Part shown: in pieces, positions 1,084-18,194 of the stretch | Layout of the letters: every line of letters starts with the position of its first letter | Numbering within the stretch: the stretch's first letter is position 1 | Virus record (IMG/VR): IMGVR_UViG_2585427774_000009 | Coordinates: 1 to 25,822 of that record | Source: a virus | Lineage: Duplodnaviria > Heunggongvirae > Uroviricota > Caudoviricetes | Length of the DNA stretch: 25,822 bases | Strand: one strand, 5' to 3' | The notes under the pieces: generated by a model | Databases searched by the model: none | Seen by the model: only the letters and a program-made list of their open reading frames with translations | Told to the model about the DNA's origin: nothing | Translations under genes and position numbers: made by a program

Positions 1084-1244
1084 TTTATCAGTTCGCTCCC
1101 ATCCGTACCAGTCCGCAAAATCCCCTGAATATCAAGCCTTCCGTAGATTAACAGTTCGTAATGGTTCGCGTCAGATCGTTGACAGCCGCACTCCATGACG
1201 GGTAAAAAGTGGATAAAATAATTTTACCCACCGGATTTTTACCC

Positions 1245-2435
1245 ATGCTCACCGTTAAGCAGATTGAAGCAGCAAAGCCGAAAGAAAAACCATACCGCCT
1301 TCTCGATGGTAATGGCCTGTACCTTTATGTCCCTGTATCAGGGAAAAAGGTATGGCAGCTTCGCTACAAGATTGACGGTAAGGAAAAAATACTGACCGTA
1401 GGAAAATATCCGCTAATGACTTTGCAGGAGGCAAGGGATAAAGCATGGACCGCGAGGAAAGACATCTCGGTTGGCATCGATCCGGTAAAGGCGAAAAAGG
1501 CTTCGTCTAACAACAATTCCTTTAGTGCGATTTACAAGGAATGGTACGAGCACAAGAAGCAAGTCTGGTCAGTAGGCTATGCAACTGAACTTGCCAAAAT
1601 GTTTGATGACGACATTTTACCCATCATCGGCGGTCTTGAGATTCAGGATATTGAGCCGATGCAACTGCTGGAAGTAATCCGCAGATTTGAAAATCGCGGT
1701 GCAATGGAGCGAGCCAACAAAGCCCGCAGAAGATGCGGCGAGGTTTTCCGTTACGCTATTGTCACCGGCAGGGCTAAATATAACCCGGCACCTGACCTTG
1801 CTGACGCCATGAAGGGATACCGCAAGAAGAACTTCCCGTTTCTTCCTGCAGACCAGATCCCGGCATTCAACAAAGCACTGGCAACATTTTCAGGAAGCAT
1901 CGTATCGCTCATTGCGACCAAAGTTTTACGCTACACAGCCCTAAGAACGAAAGAGCTTCGCTCCATGCAATGGAAGAACGTCGATTTTGAAAACAGGATT
2001 ATCACTATCGACGCCAGTGTGATGAAGGGCCGCAAAATTCATGTGGTTCCTATGTCAGACCAGGTAGTTGAACTTCTCACTACGCTAAGCTCAATCACCA
2101 AACCAGTATCAGAGTTTGTTTTTGCCGGGCGCAACGATAAGAAGAAGCCAATCTGCGAGAACGCGGTATTACTTGTGATCAAACGAATCGGCTATGAGGG
2201 TCTGGAAAGCGGTCACGGATTCAGGCATGAATTCAGCACGATTATGAACGAGCACGAATGGCCTGCTGATGCTATTGAAGTGCAACTGGCACATGCCAAC
2301 GGCGGATCTGTACGTGGAATTTACAACCATGCTCAGTATCTCGATAAGCGCAGAGAAATGATGCAGTGGTGGGCGGACTGGCTTGATGAAAAGGTGGGGG
2401 AATGCCACCCATCACACCACCCTGTCATCCTGTAG
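1245..2435 (+). CDS. intS: Tyrosine recombinase, IntS/P4-family prophage integrase
   Basis: ORF track gives 1209..2435 from a GTG; the ATG at 1245 yields MLTVKQIEAAKPKEKPYRLLDGNGLYLYVP, matching the E. coli CPS-53 IntS N-terminus as I recall it; C-terminal region contains the R...H..R...Y-type catalytic segment (GHGFRHEFST...RGIYNHAQY); sits 160 bp downstream of argW. Confidence 0.88.
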   Translation: MLTVKQIEAAKPKEKPYRLLDGNGLYLYVPVSGKKVWQLRYKIDGKEKILTVGKYPLMTLQEARDKAWTARKDISVGIDPVKAKKASSNNNSFSAIYKEWYEHKKQVWSVGYATELAKMFDDDILPIIGGLEIQDIEPMQLLEVIRRFENRGAMERANKARRRCGEVFRYAIVTGRAKYNPAPDLADAMKGYRKKNFPFLPADQIPAFNKALATFSGSIVSLIATKVLRYTALRTKELRSMQWKNVDFENRIITIDASVMKGRKIHVVPMSDQVVELLTTLSSITKPVSEFVFAGRNDKKKPICENAVLLVIKRIGYEGLESGHGFRHEFSTIMNEHEWPADAIEVQLAHANGGSVRGIYNHAQYLDKRREMMQWWADWLDEKVGECHPSHHPVIL

Positions 2436-3008: not shown

Positions 3009-3270
3009 GTTTTAAAGTGAGTGCAGATCAATGCGGCGACGCCTATCAATAGCGTCCACAGTTATAGAGGAACGGCGAAAGAATAAACAGTAGGGCTGTA
3101 TTGATGAAGAACCCAGGGATCTTTAACGCTCATACTGATCATTTGTCAGGATGTGATTATCAATAAAGCCAGGATAGGATTAATCTCACACACTTAGAGA
3201 TGACCCGACAATAATCGAAACGACAAGAAAAATGTGGTCTCGGTTACAGGATTATCACCTTGGTAAAGGG

Positions 3271-3582
3271 ATGACTACCATGACAAAATATGAAGGAATA
3301 TCGGCCAGAGTTAAACAAGTTACAGTTAATGATTTTGGTAGATATTTCAATAGCATTGAAAATTACAAGAATGGCATTTTTTGCTATATATGCGGTGGTA
3401 ATGACTGGGATTTGCACAGAAGTCCTGATGATAAAGAAAGGCCCGTGATTATCACCTTTCCCATCCCCGATAAAGATGGAATGGGAGTATGGGCCTTTTA
3501 TGTGATGTGCAAAAATTGCGGCGGCATGCATTTTATCAATGCTAATAAAGTTGCTAATTGGTTGGATAACAAAGAAAAATGA
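3271..3582 (+). CDS. Hypothetical small protein with two C-x2-C motifs (putative zinc ribbon)
   Basis: ORF track gives 3232..3582; the more likely start is the ATG at 3271 or 3280 (AAAGGGA Shine-Dalgarno at 3264-3271). Contains CYICGG and CKNCGG about 38 residues apart. Visibly AT-rich coding sequence. Stop overlaps the next start (ATGA at 3579-3582). Confidence 0.55.
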   Translation: MTTMTKYEGISARVKQVTVNDFGRYFNSIENYKNGIFCYICGGNDWDLHRSPDDKERPVIITFPIPDKDGMGVWAFYVMCKNCGGMHFINANKVANWLDNKEK

Positions 3583-4073
3583 TTAACCCTTGCTATGATG
3601 AGAGCATCTTCAATGTTGAAGTAAGGGGTAAATCTAAGCTAAATAGCCACGCCGGTGGTATGATTGAAAATCATAACGGCGACACTATGTTAGTTGCTGA
3701 AACAATCACTATTGATTTTGAGGAGGAAATCGTGACTTCGCAAGAAAATCCGCATCTGAAAATTCCTCTTACTTTCAAATCGGCTATGTGGATGGGTATT
3801 GGTTTCGTTGCTGTTGCGCTAGGTGGAGCTTGGGCCATGTACACCCACTTAGACAACAAACTTGAAACCTATAGATCTGGTACTGAAGCCCGAATTGAGG
3901 CCGCAAGAGCAAGCCTTGATGGCAAGATAGATTCTCTCGGATCAGAAACACGCGCTCATTTTGAAGCGGCTAGAGTGGAATCTAAAGCAGATAATGCCAC
4001 CATAACAACTCAACTACAGACCATCTCAAATAGCCTATCCGAACTAAACGGAAAAGTTTCAAAAGACAAATAA
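3579..4073 (+). CDS. Hypothetical membrane-anchored protein with one predicted TM helix and a helical C-terminal domain
   Basis: 164-aa ORF; central hydrophobic segment MWMGIGFVAVALGGAWAMY; C-terminal Ala/Arg/Glu-rich repeated helical segments (TEARIEAARASLDGKIDSLGSETRAHFEAARVESKAD); translationally coupled to the upstream ORF; followed by a terminator hairpin. Confidence 0.6.
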   Translation: MINPCYDESIFNVEVRGKSKLNSHAGGMIENHNGDTMLVAETITIDFEEEIVTSQENPHLKIPLTFKSAMWMGIGFVAVALGGAWAMYTHLDNKLETYRSGTEARIEAARASLDGKIDSLGSETRAHFEAARVESKADNATITTQLQTISNSLSELNGKVSKDK

Positions 4074-4223: not shown

Positions 4224-6431
4224 TTATTTTGATTCGAGATCCTCAACACGCGCTACCAAATTTTCATACTGCTCTTTCATTCGCTCATAGTTACGGCGCT
4301 GCAGCGCAGCTTCCAGAGCCAGGGCCTCCTCATAACGAATGCCATAGCGGGATCCGGCTGGGGTTTCCAGAACCTGGCTGTAAGTTGGCTCTGCAGGTTC
4401 GGTATATTCCTCAATTACCTCAGTCGGCACCTGCTCGGTATACTCCTCCTCGACATCTTCAAGCTCTGCCTCATAAACAAAAAGCTGTTTGCCTGCCTCG
4501 TCAAGACGCGGAGAACCATCCTCGTTAAAGACAAATACCTGGATAAGCTTAGGTGTCTGATACTCTTCCTGAACTACCCTCTTGATGCGTTCTCCATCTT
4601 CCGCTTCTTCATCCACAAGAATTTCGCGCGTGGCTGTCATCATCACAGGTCGTTTTACTGTACGGGTTTTTGTCACTTCCATCATGCGGCTGACAGTGCG
4701 GGTTTTTGTTACTCGCTCCCCCTCATTGGTCCGCACTGAAATATATTGGTCTTCCCATTCGTCGTAACAGAGGAGCCCGAGACCGAAGCCATCAATGCCA
4801 TGCGATGCAAACACCTCCTCCACGCGCTGCGCAATAAGGCCGAAGTGCCAGCGCGCACCGTCTTCGCCTTTTTGCGCAACCGCATCATCAAACTTAAACC
4901 GCGTGCGCCAGCTGACTTCCTCCCAGGCATCGAGGACCACATCAGGGATCGCTTCCTTAATTGGCTTGTGATTGTCATCGGAGGTGTTAATCGCACCAGT
5001 ACCAAAATAGGCAGTACGTCCTCGATATGAGGCTGAGCCATAATCGAACTGGTTATCGGCGCTCGGGCGCTGGGTGCAGTTATAGGTGACAATCCCGGCT
5101 TTTATCTCATAGTTACCTTGCCCATCTGTTGCACTACCACCGCTAACCACTACGCGAGCGTCAAAAGCAGAGCCAGCCCCACTGGACCGGTATATTGTTT
5201 GCACCGTGCTTGCAATAGTTGGAGACCCTACTGACGTAAACGCCCCTGAGTCTTCTAATTGCAAAGATTTGGTGCTGAGCTTAACCAGGTTGTGGAAAAT
5301 GATGTGGTTCACTTCAACCAACGAACCGAGGGAAAGGACGCGGTCTATTTTTGGGCAGTCGACGGAAAGTACACGGCTGTCTTCACCAAATACTGCCCCG
5401 CCATTCTGCGGGCCAAAGGCAATACCGGTTCGCCAGGTGCAGGCGCTACCCATGTTACCGACGCTAATTGCAGCATCAATTACGTCGCCGCGTTTTGCCT
5501 TGGTGCCGCCGATTTGCAGGCCGGTTCTGATGTTTGAGCTGGCACCCTCCGGAATGCCGACGTTGAATTCAGCCCCCGTGACATTGAGCGTATACATAGC
5601 CCCTGGGGTAAGCGTTCCGTAGAAATTACCACCAAAATAAGCCCCCTTAGCGCCAGCAAGCGATACTCCACCGTCTCCAGTTGAGGAGGTCGCAAAGCCG
5701 GTGACGCCTACATAGTTTCTGTCAGTATTTGTTGCATCAGTCTGACCAAGCTGCTCAAGGATGAATTCAGCAGCGTGGCGGCCGCCTTTACATCCCGCCC
5801 CCCCGAATTTGTGATTCAAGAGGAATCCGTCAACCTTTGTTCCGGGAACCATGTCATCAACAGCATTGAAACGGTCATCGTCAATCCTGATATAATTGAA
5901 CTTGGCCGTGTTGACAGTGAGCCCGCTCCCGGTAATCGGCTCCGCAAGATGAACCCCGATCCCTCGGGTAATATCATCTCCGAATTTCTCTCCTGGCCGC
6001 CCCTGCAGAATTGAAAACTTATCCAGTCCTCGGCTCATTACCCCAGGACCTACTAATGCAGCGCCGCCCAGCGCAGCTAATTCAGCCCTTAACTGGTCTG
6101 GAGCATATTTCAGAACATCAGCAAAATAGAATTGTTGGGTGCCGTATGAATCGCGAATCTCCATGCTGTAATTTTGCACGGTGACGAATTTAACAATCTG
6201 ACCGTTATAAACGGGGAATCCGCCAGCATTTATTCGCAATGGCTGAGGTACTGGAACATGGGTCCCATCTTCATTCTCAATATAAACCTGAATTTGGTTA
6301 GCAGGATTCGTAGGATCTGTATCCACTAGCCCAATAAAGATTTCTCCATTGGCAACAGCCTTAAATGCACGAGCCATAGTAAATGGCTGGCTAGGCATGG
6401 CGATAAGAACATTCGCGGTAATATCTGACAT
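4224..6431 (-). CDS. Tailspike protein: P22-like head-binding N-domain, glycine-rich receptor-binding/depolymerase domain, C-terminal S74-type intramolecular chaperone domain
   Basis: 735-aa ORF; N-terminal about 110 aa (MSDITANV...FKAVANG...[19 protein letters not shown]...LKY.PDQ) matches the P22 gp9 head-binding domain from memory; central Gly/Thr-rich region typical of beta-helix spikes; C-terminal part has a Ser-(x4)-Lys motif (TSDDNHK) and WHFGLIAQ resembling endosialidase-type autoproteolytic chaperone domains; last gene of the late operon as in P22. Confidence 0.85.
4657..4712 (-). repeat. Imperfect 36-bp tandem duplication inside the tailspike C-terminal domain
   Basis: ACTGTACGGGTTTTTGTCAC (4657-4676) and ACAGTGCGGGTTTTTGTTAC (4693-4712) on the plus strand, encoding the duplicated peptide VTKTRTV in [22 protein letters not shown]. 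Confidence 0.5.
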
Positions 6432-6531: not shown

Positions 6532-7434
6532 TCAGTAGTTATGTACTGAAGGAGGTAATTCTTTATTCTTAAGTCTCATCCATGCGGAAAGATTCGTTGG
6601 TCCGTCTGGCTCATTGATATCAACATCTCGTGAGTGATTGATTAAAACGTCTCTCGCTATATCGATAATACGGGAGAACTCATAACCGCAGTCATGACAT
6701 CTGCCGGAATAGTTCGATTGAATTTGTTTCAGCGCCGGATACAGTTCGCGGAATAATGCCTGTGAGCGGTTGGCATAATCCCATAACCATACAAGACTGT
6801 TTGCTTCTTTTGCAGAAAGCTCGTTGGTTTTCTTATCTTGTTTGCCGATAAACTCGCCTTCAAGCACTACCCTGTGGATGTACTCTACTGCTTGCGGTAT
6901 CTGAGATGCATCAAGCTCTTCAATACTTTCCACGTTGAAACGCTGATGAATCATTGCATAAGCTTCTGGGTACATTAGATGCTTTTTGCTGACTAGCATA
7001 TTTACAGCATCACGAAGCGGAGTCCTGTCATCAACAGATGTTTTCTTACGTGCATTTTCTGCCTTTCCCTTCGTCCAGTAGTCATGCAGCACGCTAAAGC
7101 ATTCCTCCTGGTACTGAATCAGTTTATCACGGATGTCAGCACGAACTTTCTCAGGGTTGATGCTGAACAGCCATCCATTTAACTTCTTCAAAGGAAGGCA
7201 GAGTAGCTTACGAAGCTTCCCATCAGCGGCAACCATGTTCATATGAACACAGTTGAATTTGCTAATCTGCTTCATGAGTTTTGTTTGCTGCGTTGACCAG
7301 CTCATTCCAAGGTTTTCAACGATTGGCTTCATCGCAACATATGCAACTCCGGCAGCCATGGCGGTGATAATTTGCTGACCGTTGAATGGTACGTAAGAGG
7401 TGTTCACTGCTTCTAAAATTGCTATACTATTCAT
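6532..7434 (-). CDS. ant: Antirepressor Ant (P22 immI)
   Basis: ORF track gives a 322-aa ORF; the internal start [21 protein letters not shown] matches the P22 Ant N-terminus from memory and gives 300 aa, with a GGAGA Shine-Dalgarno upstream; position downstream of arc. Confidence 0.85.
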
Positions 7435-7502
7435 GTTGGTTTTTCTCCACGGATTTACTGACAACCGAAGCCCTGACTGTTCCCGCAGTTGGGGCTTCAA
7501 CT
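7435..7502 (+). ncRNA. sar: Possible sar-type antisense RNA region (arc-ant intergenic, antisense to the ant ribosome-binding site)
   Basis: Established P22 biology: a small antisense RNA is transcribed opposite to ant across its translation-initiation region. Here the 68-bp arc-ant spacer contains a GAAGCCC...GGGCTTC hairpin. Ends not determined; placed by analogy only. Confidence 0.3.
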
Positions 7503-7754: not shown

Positions 7755-8006
7755 ATGGCTAGAGATGATCCGCACTTTAACTTCCGTATGCCTATGGAAG
7801 TAAGGGAGAAATTAAAATTCAGGGCGGAGGCGAATGGGAGATCAATGAACTCCGAGTTGTTACAAATCGTCCAAGATGCTCTATCAAAACCATCGCCTGT
7901 GACTGGATATCGCGACGATGCAGAACGACTCGCTGATGAGCAGTCAGAGCTTGTTAAGAAGATGGTGTTTGATACGCTGAAGGATTTGTACAAAAAACCC
8001 ACCTGA
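7755..8006 (+). CDS. mnt: Mnt repressor (ribbon-helix-helix, maintenance of lysogeny)
   Basis: 83-aa ORF MARDDPHFNFRMPMEVREKLKFRAEANGRSMNSELLQIVQDALSKPSPVTGYRDDAERLADEQSELVKKMVFDTLKDLYKKPT, near-identical to P22 Mnt from memory; divergent from arc-ant. Confidence 0.9.
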   Translation: MARDDPHFNFRMPMEVREKLKFRAEANGRSMNSELLQIVQDALSKPSPVTGYRDDAERLADEQSELVKKMVFDTLKDLYKKPT

Positions 8007-8015
8007 CGGTGGGTT
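7992..8015. terminator. Hairpin terminator shared by convergent mnt (+) and the 355-aa gene (-)
   Basis: AAAAAA-CCCACC-TGAC-GGTGGG-TT; the minus-strand transcript would end in a U-run (plus-strand A-run 7992-7997); overlaps the mnt stop codon. Confidence 0.55.
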
Positions 8016-8019
8016 ACTG

Positions 8020-9027
8020 TTACTTGTCTGAATCATCCAGTTCGTCTGTTTTCACATCCTCAAACCTTGGATGCAGGCGATTCATTTTTGCAATAAAATC
8101 TGAATAGTCGTTAGATAGCTTCATAATCGTAACGGTTGATGACAGATGCTCTCTTAATTTTTGATATCCAATATTTGGCGTCAGCCCCTGAAACAACTTT
8201 GTACCTTTTGAGGCCTTTACGTTCTGCTTTTTAAGCTCCTCAAGGATGTTTGGTGCCAATCTCTTGTAGACGATATCATTTGTCAAAACGCCAAAATACT
8301 GAGGCCGGAAGCGGGGATTTTCCGGCGGGTATTCTAAGCCCCTTAACCTGAAAAGCTCTTCATAATAATCAGCAGGAAATGTTGTAATATAAGGTTGAAT
8401 TTCCTTTGCGACAAAGGCCTCGAGTATTTTGGCGAGTGCATCTTTTTCTCTATCTCGCTGGTAACCCGTCGCTTCATCAACAAGCGCTATTATTCCGACT
8501 TTAGCTAATGAGCGCACCAGAATTTCAGCTTTCTTGGCTGTCTCTAACTGGTTTGGCCTGGTGATAGCGCCTGCCTCTCTTGCCTTTAAATAAACATCGC
8601 AGACAAGAGGTATTATGGATGCGTCATAACCTTCCTGGACGGAGCCAGTAATCGTCTTGTATTTGACCTTATTGATCACATCCATAACATCTTGATTTAT
8701 ATATTTTTTAAGGTTTGCAGCATCCATAAAAGCGGGCATATTGATCACCCCCTCTTCTTGAGGTGCTCTACCCCCTCTTTGTGGTCGGCCAAATGCTTTA
8801 AAAACAGAAGCTTGTGATATGATACGCCGTCCATTTTCGAGAACCGCGACATCTAATTCCGCATCACCGATCTTTAACTTTCCCTCATTCGCAGATACGG
8901 GCAATAAAGCTTTTTCTTTTTTTGCGGCAACAGCCTTTCTTGAGGATTCTTTTCTTTGCTCTGCTGTCATTTTTGCCGCGCGTGCCTTACCGCCTTTGGC
9001 CTTCCCACTAACATCATCATTTTTCAT
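8020..9027 (-). CDS. Hypothetical protein with basic Lys/Ala-rich N-terminus and a C-terminal region resembling the P63C-type phage domain
   Basis: ORF track gives 8020..9087 (355 aa); the likely start is the ATG at 9027 or 9033 (MKNDDVSGKAKGGKARAAK...). The IALVDEATGYQRDREKDALAKILEAF segment resembles my recollection of P63C-domain proteins; unverified. Occupies the position where P22 carries sieA-region genes, between gp16 and mnt. Confidence 0.6.
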   Translation of the reverse strand: MKNDDVSGKAKGGKARAAKMTAEQRKESSRKAVAAKKEKALLPVSANEGKLKIGDAELDVAVLENGRRIISQASVFKAFGRPQRGGRAPQEEGVINMPAFMDAANLKKYINQDVMDVINKVKYKTITGSVQEGYDASIIPLVCDVYLKAREAGAITRPNQLETAKKAEILVRSLAKVGIIALVDEATGYQRDREKDALAKILEAFVAKEIQPYITTFPADYYEELFRLRGLEYPPENPRFRPQYFGVLTNDIVYKRLAPNILEELKKQNVKASKGTKLFQGLTPNIGYQKLREHLSSTVTIMKLSNDYSDFIAKMNRLHPRFEDVKTDELDDSDK

Positions 9028-9069
9028 GAGCATATCTCGTGTTGTGATTGATAAGTCAATCATACACAT

Positions 9070-9104
9070 GCACGTTGTAACGTGCAATATTTAAATATGC
9101 ACGT
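9070..9104. promoter_or_regulatory. Cluster of palindromic operator-like sites in a divergent promoter region
   Basis: GCACGTT-GT-AACGTGC inverted repeat (9070-9085), perfect 12-bp palindrome ATATTTAAATAT (9087-9098) and a third GCACGT copy (9099-9104); lies between the minus-strand 355-aa gene and the plus-strand 129-aa gene. Confidence 0.35.
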
Positions 9105-9186
9105 AAATTGCAAATCAGATAATGAGGAGACTTTCTCCCCCTTGCACTGACATCATGGTATCCTGCGCAAAACTAAGGAGGTTGGT

Positions 9187-9576
9187 GTGAAGCAATTTCT
9201 TACTGCTATGTTCTTATTCATATCTTTTGGGGCTACAGCAGAGTGCTGGGTCGTTGGAGATATGCGCGGAATAAGCTATTCAGAACGAAATAATTTCCAT
9301 CCGGAAGAAGATGGTTTTAGTGGAACATTCATCATTAAGACAAACGGTGAAGATGCCAGCATCACATATTCTGGGACAGATGCGGGCGGCATGGCTTACA
9401 AAGCATTGTCTAAAAACTCCATCATAGGAATCGGCGCGAATGGCGAAACTCAACGCGTTATCGACTCATGGGTAATACATCCAACTGGAACAGTTTTAAT
9501 GTCAAAAACCATTTCCGGTTATGGAAATATGGATTCAACCAAAGCTTTTGTTGGAAAAGTAAAAAGAAAATGTTAG
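9187..9576 (+). CDS. Hypothetical secreted (signal-peptide) small protein, opposite-strand moron
   Basis: GTG start preceded by a strong AAGGAGG Shine-Dalgarno with 6-nt spacing; N-terminus MKQFLTAMFLFISFGATA-E is a typical Sec signal peptide with an A-x-A cleavage site; transcribed against the late operon. Confidence 0.6.
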   Translation: MKQFLTAMFLFISFGATAECWVVGDMRGISYSERNNFHPEEDGFSGTFIIKTNGEDASITYSGTDAGGMAYKALSKNSIIGIGANGETQRVIDSWVIHPTGTVLMSKTISGYGNMDSTKAFVGKVKRKC

Positions 9577-9600
9577 CGATTGAATCCAATTTCCCATACG

Positions 9601-11442
9601 TTACTGCTGTGTTGCCTCAGTAGCAAACAGCGGTCTGATGGCATTCGCAGCGTTATTTATCGCTCTTTCATAGGCTGGTGTTCCTGCTTTGGTGTTTGCC
9701 AAACGAAGAAGCATATTCCTTGCTGCTTTGGACTCATACAAGCGCATCATTGCACCAAAACCAGCCTCAAGCCCCATTGATACGCCAAGGGTCGCAGTTG
9801 CGCCAATCGTCCTTATCCTGTTGGCTTGCGATTGCCCCGTCTGAGTTACTACATTTGCGGTGTCTGACCTTGCTGTTTGCTGTAGAACTTCATGAAGAGC
9901 ATCAAGCTCTTTCATGTGCTTTCCAGAAAAAATAGTGTTGTAAATTTCACCGCCTGACTGAGATTTCAGCTTATTAACTTCAGTGATGAACTTGGCTGGA
10001 GAGTCCCCGGCCTTTTCCGCTATTTTGCTGACGTAAGCTGCACGCATAGCATCTTTCCCCTTATCATCCAGTGCGCTCCAGATTCGTTTCACGTCAGATG
10101 GTTTTCTGCTTAATACAACGGTATTTATAAGTTCAGGACTGGCTTCACTGCTTGCCTTGTTGAGCTTGTTGGCAATGTTTTTATTAAGCACCTTATTATA
10201 AACGTTTGCATAATCGGAATTTGCTTTAAGGTATTTTGCTGCGTCTGATGCACCGAGGTTTTTAGCAACTGCGTTACGAAGGTCTTTTGACATTGCATTC
10301 TCTACCATATTGGTAGCTGCTTTTGCCTGGTTGGGGAAGACCATAGCATCTCCCTGAACATTAGATCTAAATGCTGTTCTGTGCTGACGCAAGAGATCAA
10401 ACGTAACATCCAAATCAGTTGCAGGGTTTGCTAATTCTTCACGTAGGTTACGCAAGGATGTAAGCAGGCTTTGATTGGCAGACGTCCCAAGCCGTTCCTG
10501 TCTTGCGATCGCTGTATTCAGAGCATTCATGGTATTTGTGGTATCAACTGCGGCATTACCCATTTTATTGGTGACGTCATTGATAACAGCGCCAGCGGCA
10601 TCCTTCCGCCCCCTTAACGTGGTGGTAAGAGATTTCACCACATCATCAGGGTTGTACTCACCAAAACGGTCAAAATAATTGCTTACCAGTTTACTACGCG
10701 TTGCATATTGCTCCGCTCGCTTTGAGCCTGTCCCGAGCAAAGCACCCTCGGCATCCTGAGTAAGGCCACGAGTGAAAGCATTTTTCGGCGGGATAACATC
10801 AGATGTCATTGGTGTCACGCCCATCGATTCTGATGTGGCAATTTTCTTCGCCACTTCTGGCGCAATATCACCTTTTATAGCCGTTATTCCACGCCCTATT
10901 CCCTTTGCTGCTGCGGAAAGAACACCCTGAGCGGCAAGGTTAACTCCGGCATTTTTAGCTGCATTTTGTGCGAAATCGCCTTTCTGATTTGCGGCCTCTG
11001 CCAGTGATCCAATAGCCATGCTTCCTGCCGTTCCAACTCCTGGAACTAAATACCCGCCAATTGTTTCTCCAGCTTGCGCATAAGGGTCTGTCGGTCGATC
11101 GACTGGACGATAGACATCATCCAATACTTTTGGCCCACCAAGCCCCTGACTGATTGCATTAATCAGACTTGCGCCACCCTGCAATACGTCAAATGGTATG
11201 TTTACCAGACCACGACCAGCCTGTTCTGAAATTTGCCCTGCACTTTGACCACCAGTGAGCCAATCGCCAGCTTGTTGCATTAATGATGGTTCTTCCCGTG
11301 TTGGTGCATTATTGGCCTGATTAACTGTTTGTTGCTGAACAGCCTGACCAGCAAAATACTCATCAATGGCGGTGCCAATATCTTCGGTGCTCGTACCATC
11401 AGGAAAGGTAAATGTCTTACCGTTTGCAGTTACTTTCATCAT
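9601..11442 (-). CDS. Ejection (internal/pilot) protein, P22 gp16-like
   Basis: 613-aa ORF in the P22 gene-16 position and of matching size (P22 gp16 about 609 aa); Ala/Gly/Gln-rich; start overlaps the upstream gene stop. Confidence 0.8.
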
Positions 11443-12854
11443 TCCACCGTAAATTGAATGCCTGATTTTGATGTATATGATCCAACCTGATTCCGTGGTT
11501 CTCCTGAAGGTGTCGAATCTTGTGCTGGCGCTGCGTCAGTATTCATTGACATATACCGCTTAACGGCACTCCCCAATGATTCACCTTTTTTAACATCCAA
11601 CCCCAATATCTGACCGCCATTACGCGATTGTCCAGGATTGCCATTCGCGCTCATCCACTCAGCTTTAAACTCATTAAACTGCGCGTTTCGTCGCTCAAGG
11701 TTTGCCATTGCATCAAGCCATCTTGCGACCGTCTCAGGGTTATCCATGTCAGTTGGCGCACCCTGCCGAACGATCTCAACGTCTTTATCCGTTGCTGGGC
11801 CGGGAGGTAGGAATTTAAGGACCTGACTGTTAACAAGGGCATTTTGGCGAATGCGCAAATCACGCAATGTTGTATCGCTTCCGGTAAGTTTTGCGAACAT
11901 GTTCTGTGCGTTACCGAACAAACCTGTCGTTGGTTTTTCTGCTCTGAACTGTTGAGCAAGCGCACTCATAGAATTGGCTGAGTTTGATGATGCTGTAGCA
12001 TTGTTTACAGCCGTCTCGATGCCTTTTTCCATGTTTACTGACAGCTTAGGTGCTTCGCTAATCAACTGCTGAGCCTTTTCCTGCGCTTGCTGCATCTTAA
12101 ACCCGAACTCTTGCTGATCCAGAGCCAAGCGTTGTGCTGCGATATTGTGCCCAGTCATTGCTGACTGATAGGAAAGGTTTTGCCCTCTCGCCTGAAGTGC
12201 CTCGCCAGCCTGATTGCTGCGGATTGTCTCTGCCAGCCTGCCTCGGTCAATTTCACGACCAGCCATCTTATCCTGAACAGCAAACGCCTTTTCTGGTCCA
12301 AGCGCACCGAGAGACATAGTAGTCAGCATGTGTGATAGCTGCTCTGGATTCTGAATACCTGTCTGAATCATCCAGTCAGCATTCGCACCCACACGATTTA
12401 ACCTGTCCTTGTTGTCAGTAATGAATTTACTGTAGGCTTCCGGTCCCTGAGAAAGAGCGACGTTAGCCCTCATGGCTAAATCGCCCATATCATTGCGTTG
12501 CTGATCATTAAGACCGGAAAACGCCTGTTGTGCCTGTGCAACAAACGCTGGATTTTCCTGGGCAAACTTAAATAGTCCCGATGGATCACCAGAAGCCCAT
12601 GCATCAGCGTGAACCTTATTGAACGCACTAATAGCTTTCTGTTGCTGTTCCTGATTGTAAATATCAGCAACTCCAGCCAGACCACGTAACGCGGTCAGAC
12701 CAACGTTATTTGCACCTGAGCGAGCCAGTTCATTGTTTTCGCGGATCAGACCAAGCGTTGCGTTAATGTCGCTTGCCTTTGGCGCATTCTCATTTTGCGT
12801 ACCGATGCCAGCCAGAAAACCACCAGAATTAATACCCTGCTGCCACGTAGCCAT
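11439..12854 (-). CDS. Ejection protein, P22 gp20-like
   Basis: 471-aa ORF matching P22 gp20 in size and position; 4-bp overlap with the gp16-like gene. Confidence 0.8.
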
Positions 12855-16898: not shown

Positions 16899-18194
16899 TC
16901 ACGCAGTCTGGTTAGGCAGACCAACACCAATTGCCTCTGGTCGTACAGCACATGCTGAATACCACACAGCAATACGGCACTTACCAGACAAAGTGTTGAT
17001 ATCACCCTGCGTTGCGAAGATGCCGTTAACACCAATACCAGGAATGCTGAAGGAAGACGTTTTCATGCCAGCAAACAGTTCATGGGTTACAGGGATCGGC
17101 TGAGACAGCAGGCGGATTGAGTCATCAGCCCAGAACACGTTAGCGGTGGTTGTTGCCACGTTCAGAACGTTTACCGGAGTGGTATCAGCAAGAGAGGTGT
17201 TTACGTTAGCGTAAGCCTTCTCTTCTTTTGTCAGTGACGCGTCATCCAGTGCAATCGGTTTCGGCGTGATTTCGATGTGAGTACCATCGATCACACGGGT
17301 GATTGAGAAAGTCGCATCATCAGTTAGCACGTTCTTCGCCATCTGAGACAGGAATTTCACACCAGTGAAACTGATTTTGTCGCCGCGTTTAAATCCGGTG
17401 GTGGAGGATACGGCCACCGTTGCAACACGGTTGTCGACGTTCTCTTTGTTACCATCGGTATCAAGGGCGTATGCCTGCGGCTTAAACTTCTGCGCACCAG
17501 AAACAGTTACACCAGTAGCGGTTGACTTGGTAACTGCCGGAAGTTTCGGTGAGCGAAGAATTTCATCAAAGCCAGCAATCTGACGCTGAATAGTACCGTT
17601 GCGATACGCTTCTTCAGGAACGCGCCCAAAGATGTCACCATCTACCAGGTTGCGGCCTGCTTTGCGGTAATCGTCAGGGTTCAGGAAGTAACTGATGCCC
17701 ATATCGCGGTTTAGCTCACGGGAGAACATCAGGCGCTCTGCGTCAGACACAAAATCCCAGCCAGACAGGCCAGTAGATGGACCAATTGCGCGGGTATCGT
17801 GAACAACAAGCGAGCCCATTTCAGTTGCCTGTTTGGCAATCGCTGACTCAATGTTATTCGCCAGTTTTTTGGCGGATGCCTGGATGCGGCGACGGTAAGA
17901 ACGCTCATCACGCAGGTCATCTGCACGAAGCTCGAAGAAATCGTTATCCGGATCGCCCATGTTGCATTTCACGGAGAGTTCCAGAATCCCGGTTGCGTTG
18001 CCAGTTAAATCCCAGCCAGTCTGGGTTGGCGCTTCCTGCTCAACAGGCATCCACACGGTGTTGCTTGAACGTTGCATGGATTCTGCCGGAGGGGTGTATT
18101 TTGTCACTTTGGACGCCATTGGCGTCAGGTTCTGGACGGTTTCGATGATTTCATCCAGAGCATACGTGACCAGTTGACCTTCATTTAATGCCAT
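16899..18194 (-). CDS. Major capsid (coat) protein, P22 gp5-like (HK97 fold)
   Basis: 431-aa ORF starting [16 protein letters not shown]..., matching the P22 coat protein in sequence and length (430 aa) from memory; follows the scaffold gene. Confidence 0.9.

Follow-up and report, generated by a model that had tools for sequence, protein, structure and literature searches.

A Hex-family gene behind the sieA leader of a P22-like prophage, encoding a putative periplasmic exclusion factor

The closest described system by position is SieA of phage P22, an inner-membrane protein of 162-164 aa with three transmembrane segments and no signal peptide. The sieA gene with only 85 bp of upstream sequence is sufficient for exclusion, and is carried by only 22 of 66 P22-like phages (PMC10883804).

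The closest described system by sequence is Hex of phage 434. The name stands for the "heterologous exclusion" of P22 by imm434 lysogens of Salmonella, as cited by Shkilnyj et al. (2013; PMC3564112), who reported that hex is co-transcribed with cI from PRM. In hex- lysogens, phage release or spontaneous induction rises 30-fold in a RecA-dependent manner. It proved impossible to purify full-length Hex, whose over-expression was toxic; a purified 6-kDa fragment, sHex, comprising E43 to N103 of a 158-codon frame, inhibits in vitro the cleavage that RecA stimulates in both the 434 and the P22 repressor (PMC3564112). A signal peptide is absent from the discussion in that paper. In the literature searched we found neither a link of Hex to sieA nor any mention of a Hex signal peptide.

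Small exported envelope proteins that bind a phage or enzyme component are encoded by a number of phages and prophages, including T4 Sp, Cor/Llp, TP-J34 Ltp, PliC/MliC and Rap1a/Tai4. The protein described below has no detectable sequence or specific fold relation to any of these, and is not a lipoprotein.

We have analysed a stretch of 25,822 nt (IMG/VR record IMGVR_UViG_2585427774_000009; hereafter the window) that constitutes a P22-like (Lederbergvirus-type) prophage of E. coli. It contains a gene, hexL, which by its sequence is a new member of the known, barely characterised Hex family. Our preferred reading of the sequence, to which we assign a probability of about 0.5, is that hexL encodes a prophage-expressed periplasmic exclusion factor directed against P22-like phages, which would hit either their DNA-delivery apparatus or a host factor that they need.

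The hexL gene and its prophage setting

The 700 bp around hexL are 100% identical to the chromosomes of E. coli HZDC01 and EC102. The features of the window that concern us are as follows.

1009-1083: tRNA-Arg(CCT), at the left end of the window
1209-2435: integrase gene, at the left end of the window
4224-6431, minus strand: tailspike gene
6532-7500, minus strand: ant, with arc on the minus strand in the same block
7435-7502, plus strand: sar RNA (Rfam, 95.6 bits), immI region
7755-8006, plus strand: mnt repressor gene (Pfam Arc and Repressor_Mnt), immI region
7996-8015: bidirectional hairpin terminator after mnt (terminator scan)
8020-9087, minus strand: P63C-domain gene, probable ATG at 9027 (Pfam P63C, E=1e-23; PHROG 2384)
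9153-9186, plus strand: sieA-type leader TCATGGTATCCTGCGCAAAACTAAGGAGGTTGGT, with the Shine-Dalgarno (SD) sequence at 9175-9181 and a possible extended -10 element TGgTATCCT at 9156-9164
9187-9576, plus strand: the hex-like gene (hexL), a 129-aa precursor with a GTG start and a TAG stop
9187-9240, plus strand: predicted Sec (SPase I) signal peptide, codons 1-18, predicted cleavage at ATA/E
9241-9573, plus strand: mature domain of 111 aa (12 kDa, pI ~7), predicted to form an up-and-down beta-barrel that has Cys20 at one end and Cys129 at the other
9577-9600: 24-nt spacer between the convergent stops of hexL and gene 16
9601-11442, minus strand: gene 16, ejection (DNA transfer) protein (PHROG 770, E=1e-278)
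11439-12854, minus strand: gene 20 (gp20; Pfam Inj_translocase)

Beyond gene 20 the minus-strand late operon runs on to the terminase and lysis genes. The P63C gene is inserted between mnt and hexL, and is divergent from hexL.

The original prediction had presented this gene as an opposite-strand, Sec-exported moron beside the ejection genes, expressed in the lysogen and perhaps active in exclusion. That description was largely right, since its strand, position and export signals all stand, and lysogen expression is suggested by the leader discussed below. It had also been called the only plus-strand gene in about 20 kb, which is incorrect, as mnt and the sar RNA also lie on the plus strand at a distance of 1.2-1.7 kb. 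Its accessory status is borne out by the highly variable region between gene 16 and mnt and by a GC content of ~0.41, compared with 0.45-0.50 for the late genes. The presence and neighbours of hexL vary and it has a conserved leader, but a scan returned neither a promoter nor an intrinsic terminator; hexL is a candidate for a Hendrix-type moron, an accessory unit with its own promoter and terminator.

The heptamer AAGGAGG, described at the outset as the strongest SD in the window, lies 5 nt ahead of the GTG, and hexL is the only ORF in the window preceded by it; a second copy, at 6549, falls within ant on the antisense strand. The number of copies in the window is not above chance (2 found, 2.5 expected). 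The weight of this evidence lies in the position of the heptamer and in its conservation ahead of hexL, where it is kept in more than 60 loci. Many RefSeq records begin hexL at Met8, giving a protein of 122 aa. With a start at Met8 the signal peptide loses its charged n-region, and the AAGGAGG-N5-GTG arrangement is disregarded. We prefer the GTG on the grounds of the SD spacing, the lysine at position 2 and the existence of alleles with ATG at the same codon, and the Met8 annotation is probably a systematic mis-annotation of the start codon.

The 85 hexL loci hold 38 nucleotide alleles, but these encode just 22 different proteins. In the mature part, the first, second and third codon positions account for 9, 8 and 34 variable sites respectively, and dN/dS for the mature protein is 0.06-0.11 for the more divergent allele pairs. 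hexL is a real gene under purifying selection. It occurs in 147 of the 5426 complete E. coli genomes surveyed (~3%), O111 EHEC strains included, and is always annotated as a hypothetical protein; the exact protein occurs on at least 1000 contigs from E. coli, E. albertii and Salmonella.

Two further features of the prophage were observed. A plus-strand cassette of two genes at 3232-4073 lies between int/xis and the tailspike gene, where P22 has gtrABC. Its first product is a protein of 116 aa with CxxC...CxxC motifs (PHROG 4293, function unknown), and its second, overlapping the first, is a protein of 164 aa that has a single hydrophobic segment and a tail resembling a coiled coil. Pfam and PADLOC gave no match to either product, and the cassette is a candidate accessory or defence unit. 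The tailspike encoded at 4224-6431 on the minus strand combines a P22-type head-binding domain with a Peptidase_S74 domain (endosialidase intramolecular chaperone) at residues 484-545, which indicates that its receptor-binding part differs from that of P22.

The sieA slot and the region upstream of hexL

The sequence TTTTTTCATGGTATCCTGCACAAAACTAAGGAGGTTGGTGTG precedes P22 sieA, whose annotated start codon is the same GTG as that of hexL. The leader in the window is near-identical to that of P22 sieA, with a single C/A difference at the n position. In effect, the P22 sieA leader, SD and GTG (TCATGGTATCCTGCnCAAAACTAAGGAGGTTGGTGTG) have been fused to hexL, so that hexL is a replacement of sieA. 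The shared leader and SD, together with the use of the same GTG, indicate that the exchange between sieA and hexL is precise to the start codon. The conserved part upstream of hexL is only ~35-40 nt long, TCAT(C)TGGTATCCTGCnCAAAACTAAGGAGGTTGGT-GTG, and corresponds to the P22 sieA leader. Of the 85 loci, 14 retain 150 nt or more of the sequence upstream of P22 sieA; some 53 have the proximal 20-40 nt, and 18 are arranged otherwise. The sieA-type leader is kept ahead of hexL in at least six different upstream contexts.

On the downstream side, P22 sieA is convergent on gene 16 across a 22-nt spacer. In 80 IMG/VR loci and phage Emek, hexL and gene 16 nearly always converge as well, a few tens of nucleotides apart. 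Most of the 85 loci share this junction irrespective of their gp16 allele (59%, 81% or 99% identity). No sharp right-hand boundary of the cassette could be placed; the 3' part of gene 16 is in any case conserved among alleles.

The locus therefore shares with that of P22 SieA the slot between genes 16 and 9, the convergence on gene 16, the PsieA leader, the SD and the GTG. Type-A sieA was not found by tblastn with P22 SieA as query in the window or in any of the 85 hexL loci, and hexL and sieA are mutually exclusive in the loci examined. The proteins, in contrast, have no sequence similarity. Whereas SieA spans the inner membrane, the hexL product is a predicted soluble, secreted barrel; it is not an integral inner-membrane protein, being hydrophobic only in its N-terminal signal peptide, with an all-beta mature part of GRAVY -0.33. 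It is likely that hexL has the same role as SieA, the exclusion of P22-like phages at DNA entry. SieA acts in the inner membrane, whereas the hexL protein, if it excludes phages, must act in the periplasm.

The hairpin after mnt at 7996-8015 and the minus-strand P63C gene that intervenes argue that hexL is not co-transcribed with mnt, and so needs a promoter of its own. A consensus scan found no canonical sigma-70 promoter upstream of hexL. However, the same scan also misses the functional upstream region of P22 sieA, so that this negative result says little. By eye, the leader contains no sigma-54 or sigma-E motifs and no -35 element is evident beside TGgTATCCT (9156-9164), while Rfam identifies no RNA family in 9028-9186. 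The window keeps only ~34 nt of the sieA leader, and this short sequence may act as the promoter. Expression of hexL in the lysogen is suggested by the sieA leader and by versions of the gene that are part of an mnt operon (see below).

The P63C gene and its upstream region are homologous to ST933Wp35 of phage 933W. Positions 9100-9176 match, at 96% identity, the sequence ahead of the P63C gene in 933W (17425-17501) and in other Stx phages, and the sequence TCATGGTATyCTGCnCAAAACTAA is common to this part of the window and the Stx phages. A perfect 18-bp palindrome, TGCACGTTGTAACGTGCA, lies at 9069-9086, with a further TGCACGT at 9098-9104. The shared element TCATGGTATCCTGCGCAAAACTAA, found in the window within 9069-9176, also precedes sieA and hexL. 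It is likely to be a recombination boundary sequence of lambdoid modules, and is also a possible operator.

Family, export signal and predicted fold

The mature domain of the protein was not recognised in the original prediction. It is not an orphan, as hexL falls in PHROG 2651 (E=2.9e-61) together with 434 Hex (E=1.4e-58). On the other hand, searches of Pfam, NCBIfam, PADLOC and PDB sequences do return no match for it, and no defence-system model of PADLOC matches it. Alignment of hexL with the 434 Hex subfamily by hhalign gave a probability of 99.9% and E=4e-36 over all 129 columns. In a six-frame tblastn search of phage genomes, hexL was matched over its full length at 27% identity (E=9e-5) by the gene directly downstream of cI, a homologue that is found in 434, lambda imm434, Sf6 (gene 38), HK446, HK633, Sf101, Huey and Chlobot. 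Near-identical hexL genes are present in the Salmonella phages Emek and ST-35.

An exhaustive search collected 89 clusters (50% identity) of hexL-family proteins of 122-148 aa; a second, word-indexed protein search with a profile returned few distant members, most of them on short contigs. Of 81 full-length members, 80 have a Cys-aromatic motif, preceded in 77 by a hydrophobic segment and in 69 by small residues at -3/-1, and only one has a lipobox. Two or four cysteines are present in 75 of the 81, and in 75 the last lies within eight residues of the C-terminus. hexL shows the same architecture, with its signal peptide, the Cys-aromatic motif at mature residues 2-3, an all-beta domain of ~110 aa and the C-terminal cysteine.

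The comparison with 434 Hex can be taken further. Both have the same size, the signal peptide and xCW N-terminus, the ETW motif and the FVGxVxGxC C-terminus, and both occupy positions from which a prophage expresses genes during lysogeny, although for hexL this is deduced from the leader. They are nevertheless distinct subfamilies, with a mature pI of ~7.0 for hexL and 4.6 for Hex. Moreover, 434 hex occupies the rex position downstream of cI and is transcribed from PRM, whereas hexL occupies the position of sieA behind its leader, far from the repressor gene.

We have also compared the published sHex fragment with the predicted precursor. In phage 434 hex (locus L002, 2429-2905), E43 of the translated 158-codon frame is the first residue after the predicted cut, TTSANS/ECW, and N103 falls in the middle of the barrel. 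These two positions indicate that sHex corresponds to the N-terminal half of the mature domain, without its signal and made in the cytoplasm. The toxicity of over-expressed full-length Hex would fit an exported protein. The published anti-RecA mechanism is cytoplasmic, and cannot easily apply to a protein that is exported; given the export signals found across the family, a native cytoplasmic role for Hex appears doubtful.

The signal peptide of hexL itself, MKQFLTAMFLFISFGATA/ECW, has a lysine at position 2, a hydrophobic core and A-x-A at -3/-1, with no lipobox. These are the features of an SPase I substrate, and the proposal of a classical Sec signal, with the cut now predicted at ATA/ECW, is upheld. 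The signal-peptide segment has been swapped wholesale between allele groups, yet it is always a signal peptide. Structure prediction, suggested earlier as a way to approach this protein, was carried out using AlphaFold2 and gave an all-beta, up-and-down barrel with a mean pLDDT of 85.7. The longest predicted strands are the first (19-32) and the last (115-128), and these would be expected to pair in antiparallel fashion, bringing Cys20 beside Cys129. With its GRAVY value and its C-terminal sequence KRKC, the mature protein looks like a soluble periplasmic protein and not an outer-membrane barrel.

Three groups of known proteins were considered and set aside. For the lysozyme inhibitors (MliC/PliC, Ivy and PliG) there is no match of hexL to a family profile or fold; the earlier suggestion of lysozyme-inhibitor activity thus found no backing, with no MliC/PliC/Ivy match in Pfam or the fold search. 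The Rap1a/Tai4 immunity proteins of type VI secretion (T6SS) were set aside in the same manner, there being no match of hexL to PF18602 or a related profile. The eight-stranded outer-membrane barrels (OmpX/Ail/Lom, PagP and OmpW) are not matched by profile either, and hexL has no C-terminal aromatic beta-signal and several strands that are too short to span a membrane.

Other genomic contexts and the competing explanations

The surroundings of hexL and its relatives vary. In an allele group of 88-89% identity there is an operon of mnt, a gene for a secreted Rap1a-family protein and hexL, in which hexL is the third gene (locus L072, 4342-5333; also L073-L084). The neighbour, orf111, matches PF18602 (T6SS amidase immunity) with E=9.7e-15. 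The same Rap1a-hexL pair, with hexL at 46% identity, is found in a prophage remnant of Silvania confinis (L085, 5646-6387) beside a C-terminal fragment of gp16 and an integrase. In Salmonella (L088, 5106-6700; also L089-L091) hexL stands between genes for a lipoprotein of 161 aa with an LAGC lipobox and a secreted protein of 99 aa (orf99). This exported cassette lies downstream of an Arc/Mnt-like gene in one operon, with a sieA-type leader ahead of the lipoprotein gene; the lipoprotein and orf99 have no Pfam or PADLOC match. The hexL of the window looks like a reduced version of the Salmonella cassette. A common context is that of L010, where a gene for a lipoprotein of 143 aa with a weak PEGA-domain hit (4562-4993, minus strand) lies on the opposite strand between mnt and hexL, so that another envelope protein occupies the same hot spot.

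More distant relatives occur elsewhere. In an unrelated viral lineage from IMG/VR (L098, 1072-9985, and L099) a member of 31% identity is the only opposite-strand gene in the structural block. It lies two genes upstream of that for a 1052-aa protein which has a gp16-family (PHROG 770) region and a C-terminal PF18823 domain. Some distant members are chromosomal and apparently in non-phage contexts, next to hrpA or to umuDC-like genes. One of these, P0113 (L086, 1395-4602), is placed between an SRAP gene and a pair encoding a UmuC-like (IMS) protein and an S24 peptidase. This is curious in view of the claimed link of Hex to the RecA-dependent cleavage of S24-type repressors, but it is a single case and may be a coincidence.

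How might these observations best be explained? The idea of exclusion is strengthened independently by the full-length homology with 434 Hex and by the exact position of hexL in the sieA slot, with the sieA leader ahead of it. In addition, in three phage settings family members are found in lysogen slots of the sie or rex type, which points to conflict between phages. Also in its favour are the export signals seen across the family, the lysogen-type operons with mnt or an Arc/Mnt-like gene, and the member of 31% identity, again a lone opposite-strand gene close to one of the gp16 family. Against this reading, the sole biochemical study of the family gives Hex a cytoplasmic anti-RecA role, some members are chromosomal, no defence-system model is matched, and the leader kept in the window is short and returned no canonical sigma-70 promoter in the scan. 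It might be proposed that hexL is instead a periplasmic immunity protein or inhibitor, protecting against an envelope-targeting enzyme (a T6SS peptidoglycan amidase, another effector, a bacteriocin or a lysozyme), and so guarding against competitors or the host and not against phages. The location directly 3' of the Rap1a-family gene in one operon would be explained in this way, inhibitors of this kind are commonly small, secreted barrels with disulfide bonds, and the retention of the pair in the degraded Silvania prophage suggests a benefit to the host. We nevertheless consider this unlikely, as Pfam, NCBIfam and fold searches gave no immunity or lysozyme-inhibitor match, no cognate effector gene lies nearby, the characterised homologue has a phage-exclusion phenotype, and both slot and leader are those of sieA. 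The same slots in three phage settings make it rather improbable that hexL is a periplasmic ligand-binding barrel (calycin or avidin-like), binding small molecules or lipids or modulating the envelope or virulence. Invariance is confined to Cys, Gly, Asp and Trp, with no conserved catalytic residues, and some relatives are chromosomal, as such a function would permit, while the structural scores for it are weak and non-specific.

Cytoplasmic protection of the repressor, in which the protein or a fragment would inhibit RecA-stimulated autocleavage and stabilise lysogeny, is the mechanism published for 434 Hex. It accounts for the RecA-dependent, 30-fold greater phage release from hex- lysogens and for the inhibition by sHex of 434 and P22 repressor cleavage in vitro (PMC3564112), and one distant member does lie beside an S24-peptidase/UmuC-like pair. 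Yet export signals and paired cysteines are found across the Hex family, the active fragment is a refolded, signal-less half-barrel that begins at the predicted ANS/ECW site, and hexL in the window is unlinked to a repressor gene and placed in the sieA slot. As an account of hexL we regard this as very improbable. Least probable of all is an eight-stranded outer-membrane barrel of the Lom/Ail/OmpX/PagP type. This would agree with the record of phage Huey, where the Hex homologue is annotated as PagP. However, no Pfam outer-membrane protein family is matched, and the mature part has just 111 aa, with several strands of 4-6 residues. The C-terminus is ...KRKC or ...TCNQ and not an aromatic beta-signal, the terminal cysteines are conserved and the GRAVY value is negative; moreover, scores just as good are obtained with Cap15, avidin and designed soluble barrels.

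If hexL is indeed a periplasmic exclusion factor, the following course of events may be envisaged. Having replaced sieA codon for codon between gene 16 and the immI region, hexL would be transcribed in the lysogen from the short sieA-type leader, and translated from its strong SD and GTG. The product would be exported by the Sec pathway and cut after Ala18. In the periplasm it would then fold as a small soluble beta-barrel, with a disulfide between Cys20 and Cys129 stapling the first strand to the last. There it would most likely block superinfecting P22-like phages at the envelope stage, in keeping with the exclusion of P22 by its homologue Hex and with the role of SieA, whose place it takes. 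The target could be a periplasm-exposed part of the ejection proteins gp7, gp20 or gp16, of the needle or of the virion murein hydrolase, or alternatively a host envelope factor needed by the incoming delivery machinery. It is possible, though we advance this only tentatively, that the Hex family as a whole consists of widespread soluble periplasmic exclusion factors that intercept the trans-envelope DNA channel of P22-like podoviruses and are exchangeable as cassettes with SieA, the anti-RecA activity of the 434 fragment not being the native mechanism.

Two thirds of the sequenced P22-like phages lack sieA (PMC10883804), and the papers searched describe no other occupant of its slot. A Hex homologue placed on the expression signals of sieA would provide a second, periplasmic way to exclude P22-like phages. 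The analysis also raises a concrete doubt about the accepted mechanism of 434 Hex, which bears on the stability of lambdoid lysogens. Finally, hexL could serve as a probe of the periplasmic steps in the assembly of the ejection-protein channel, which are still poorly understood.
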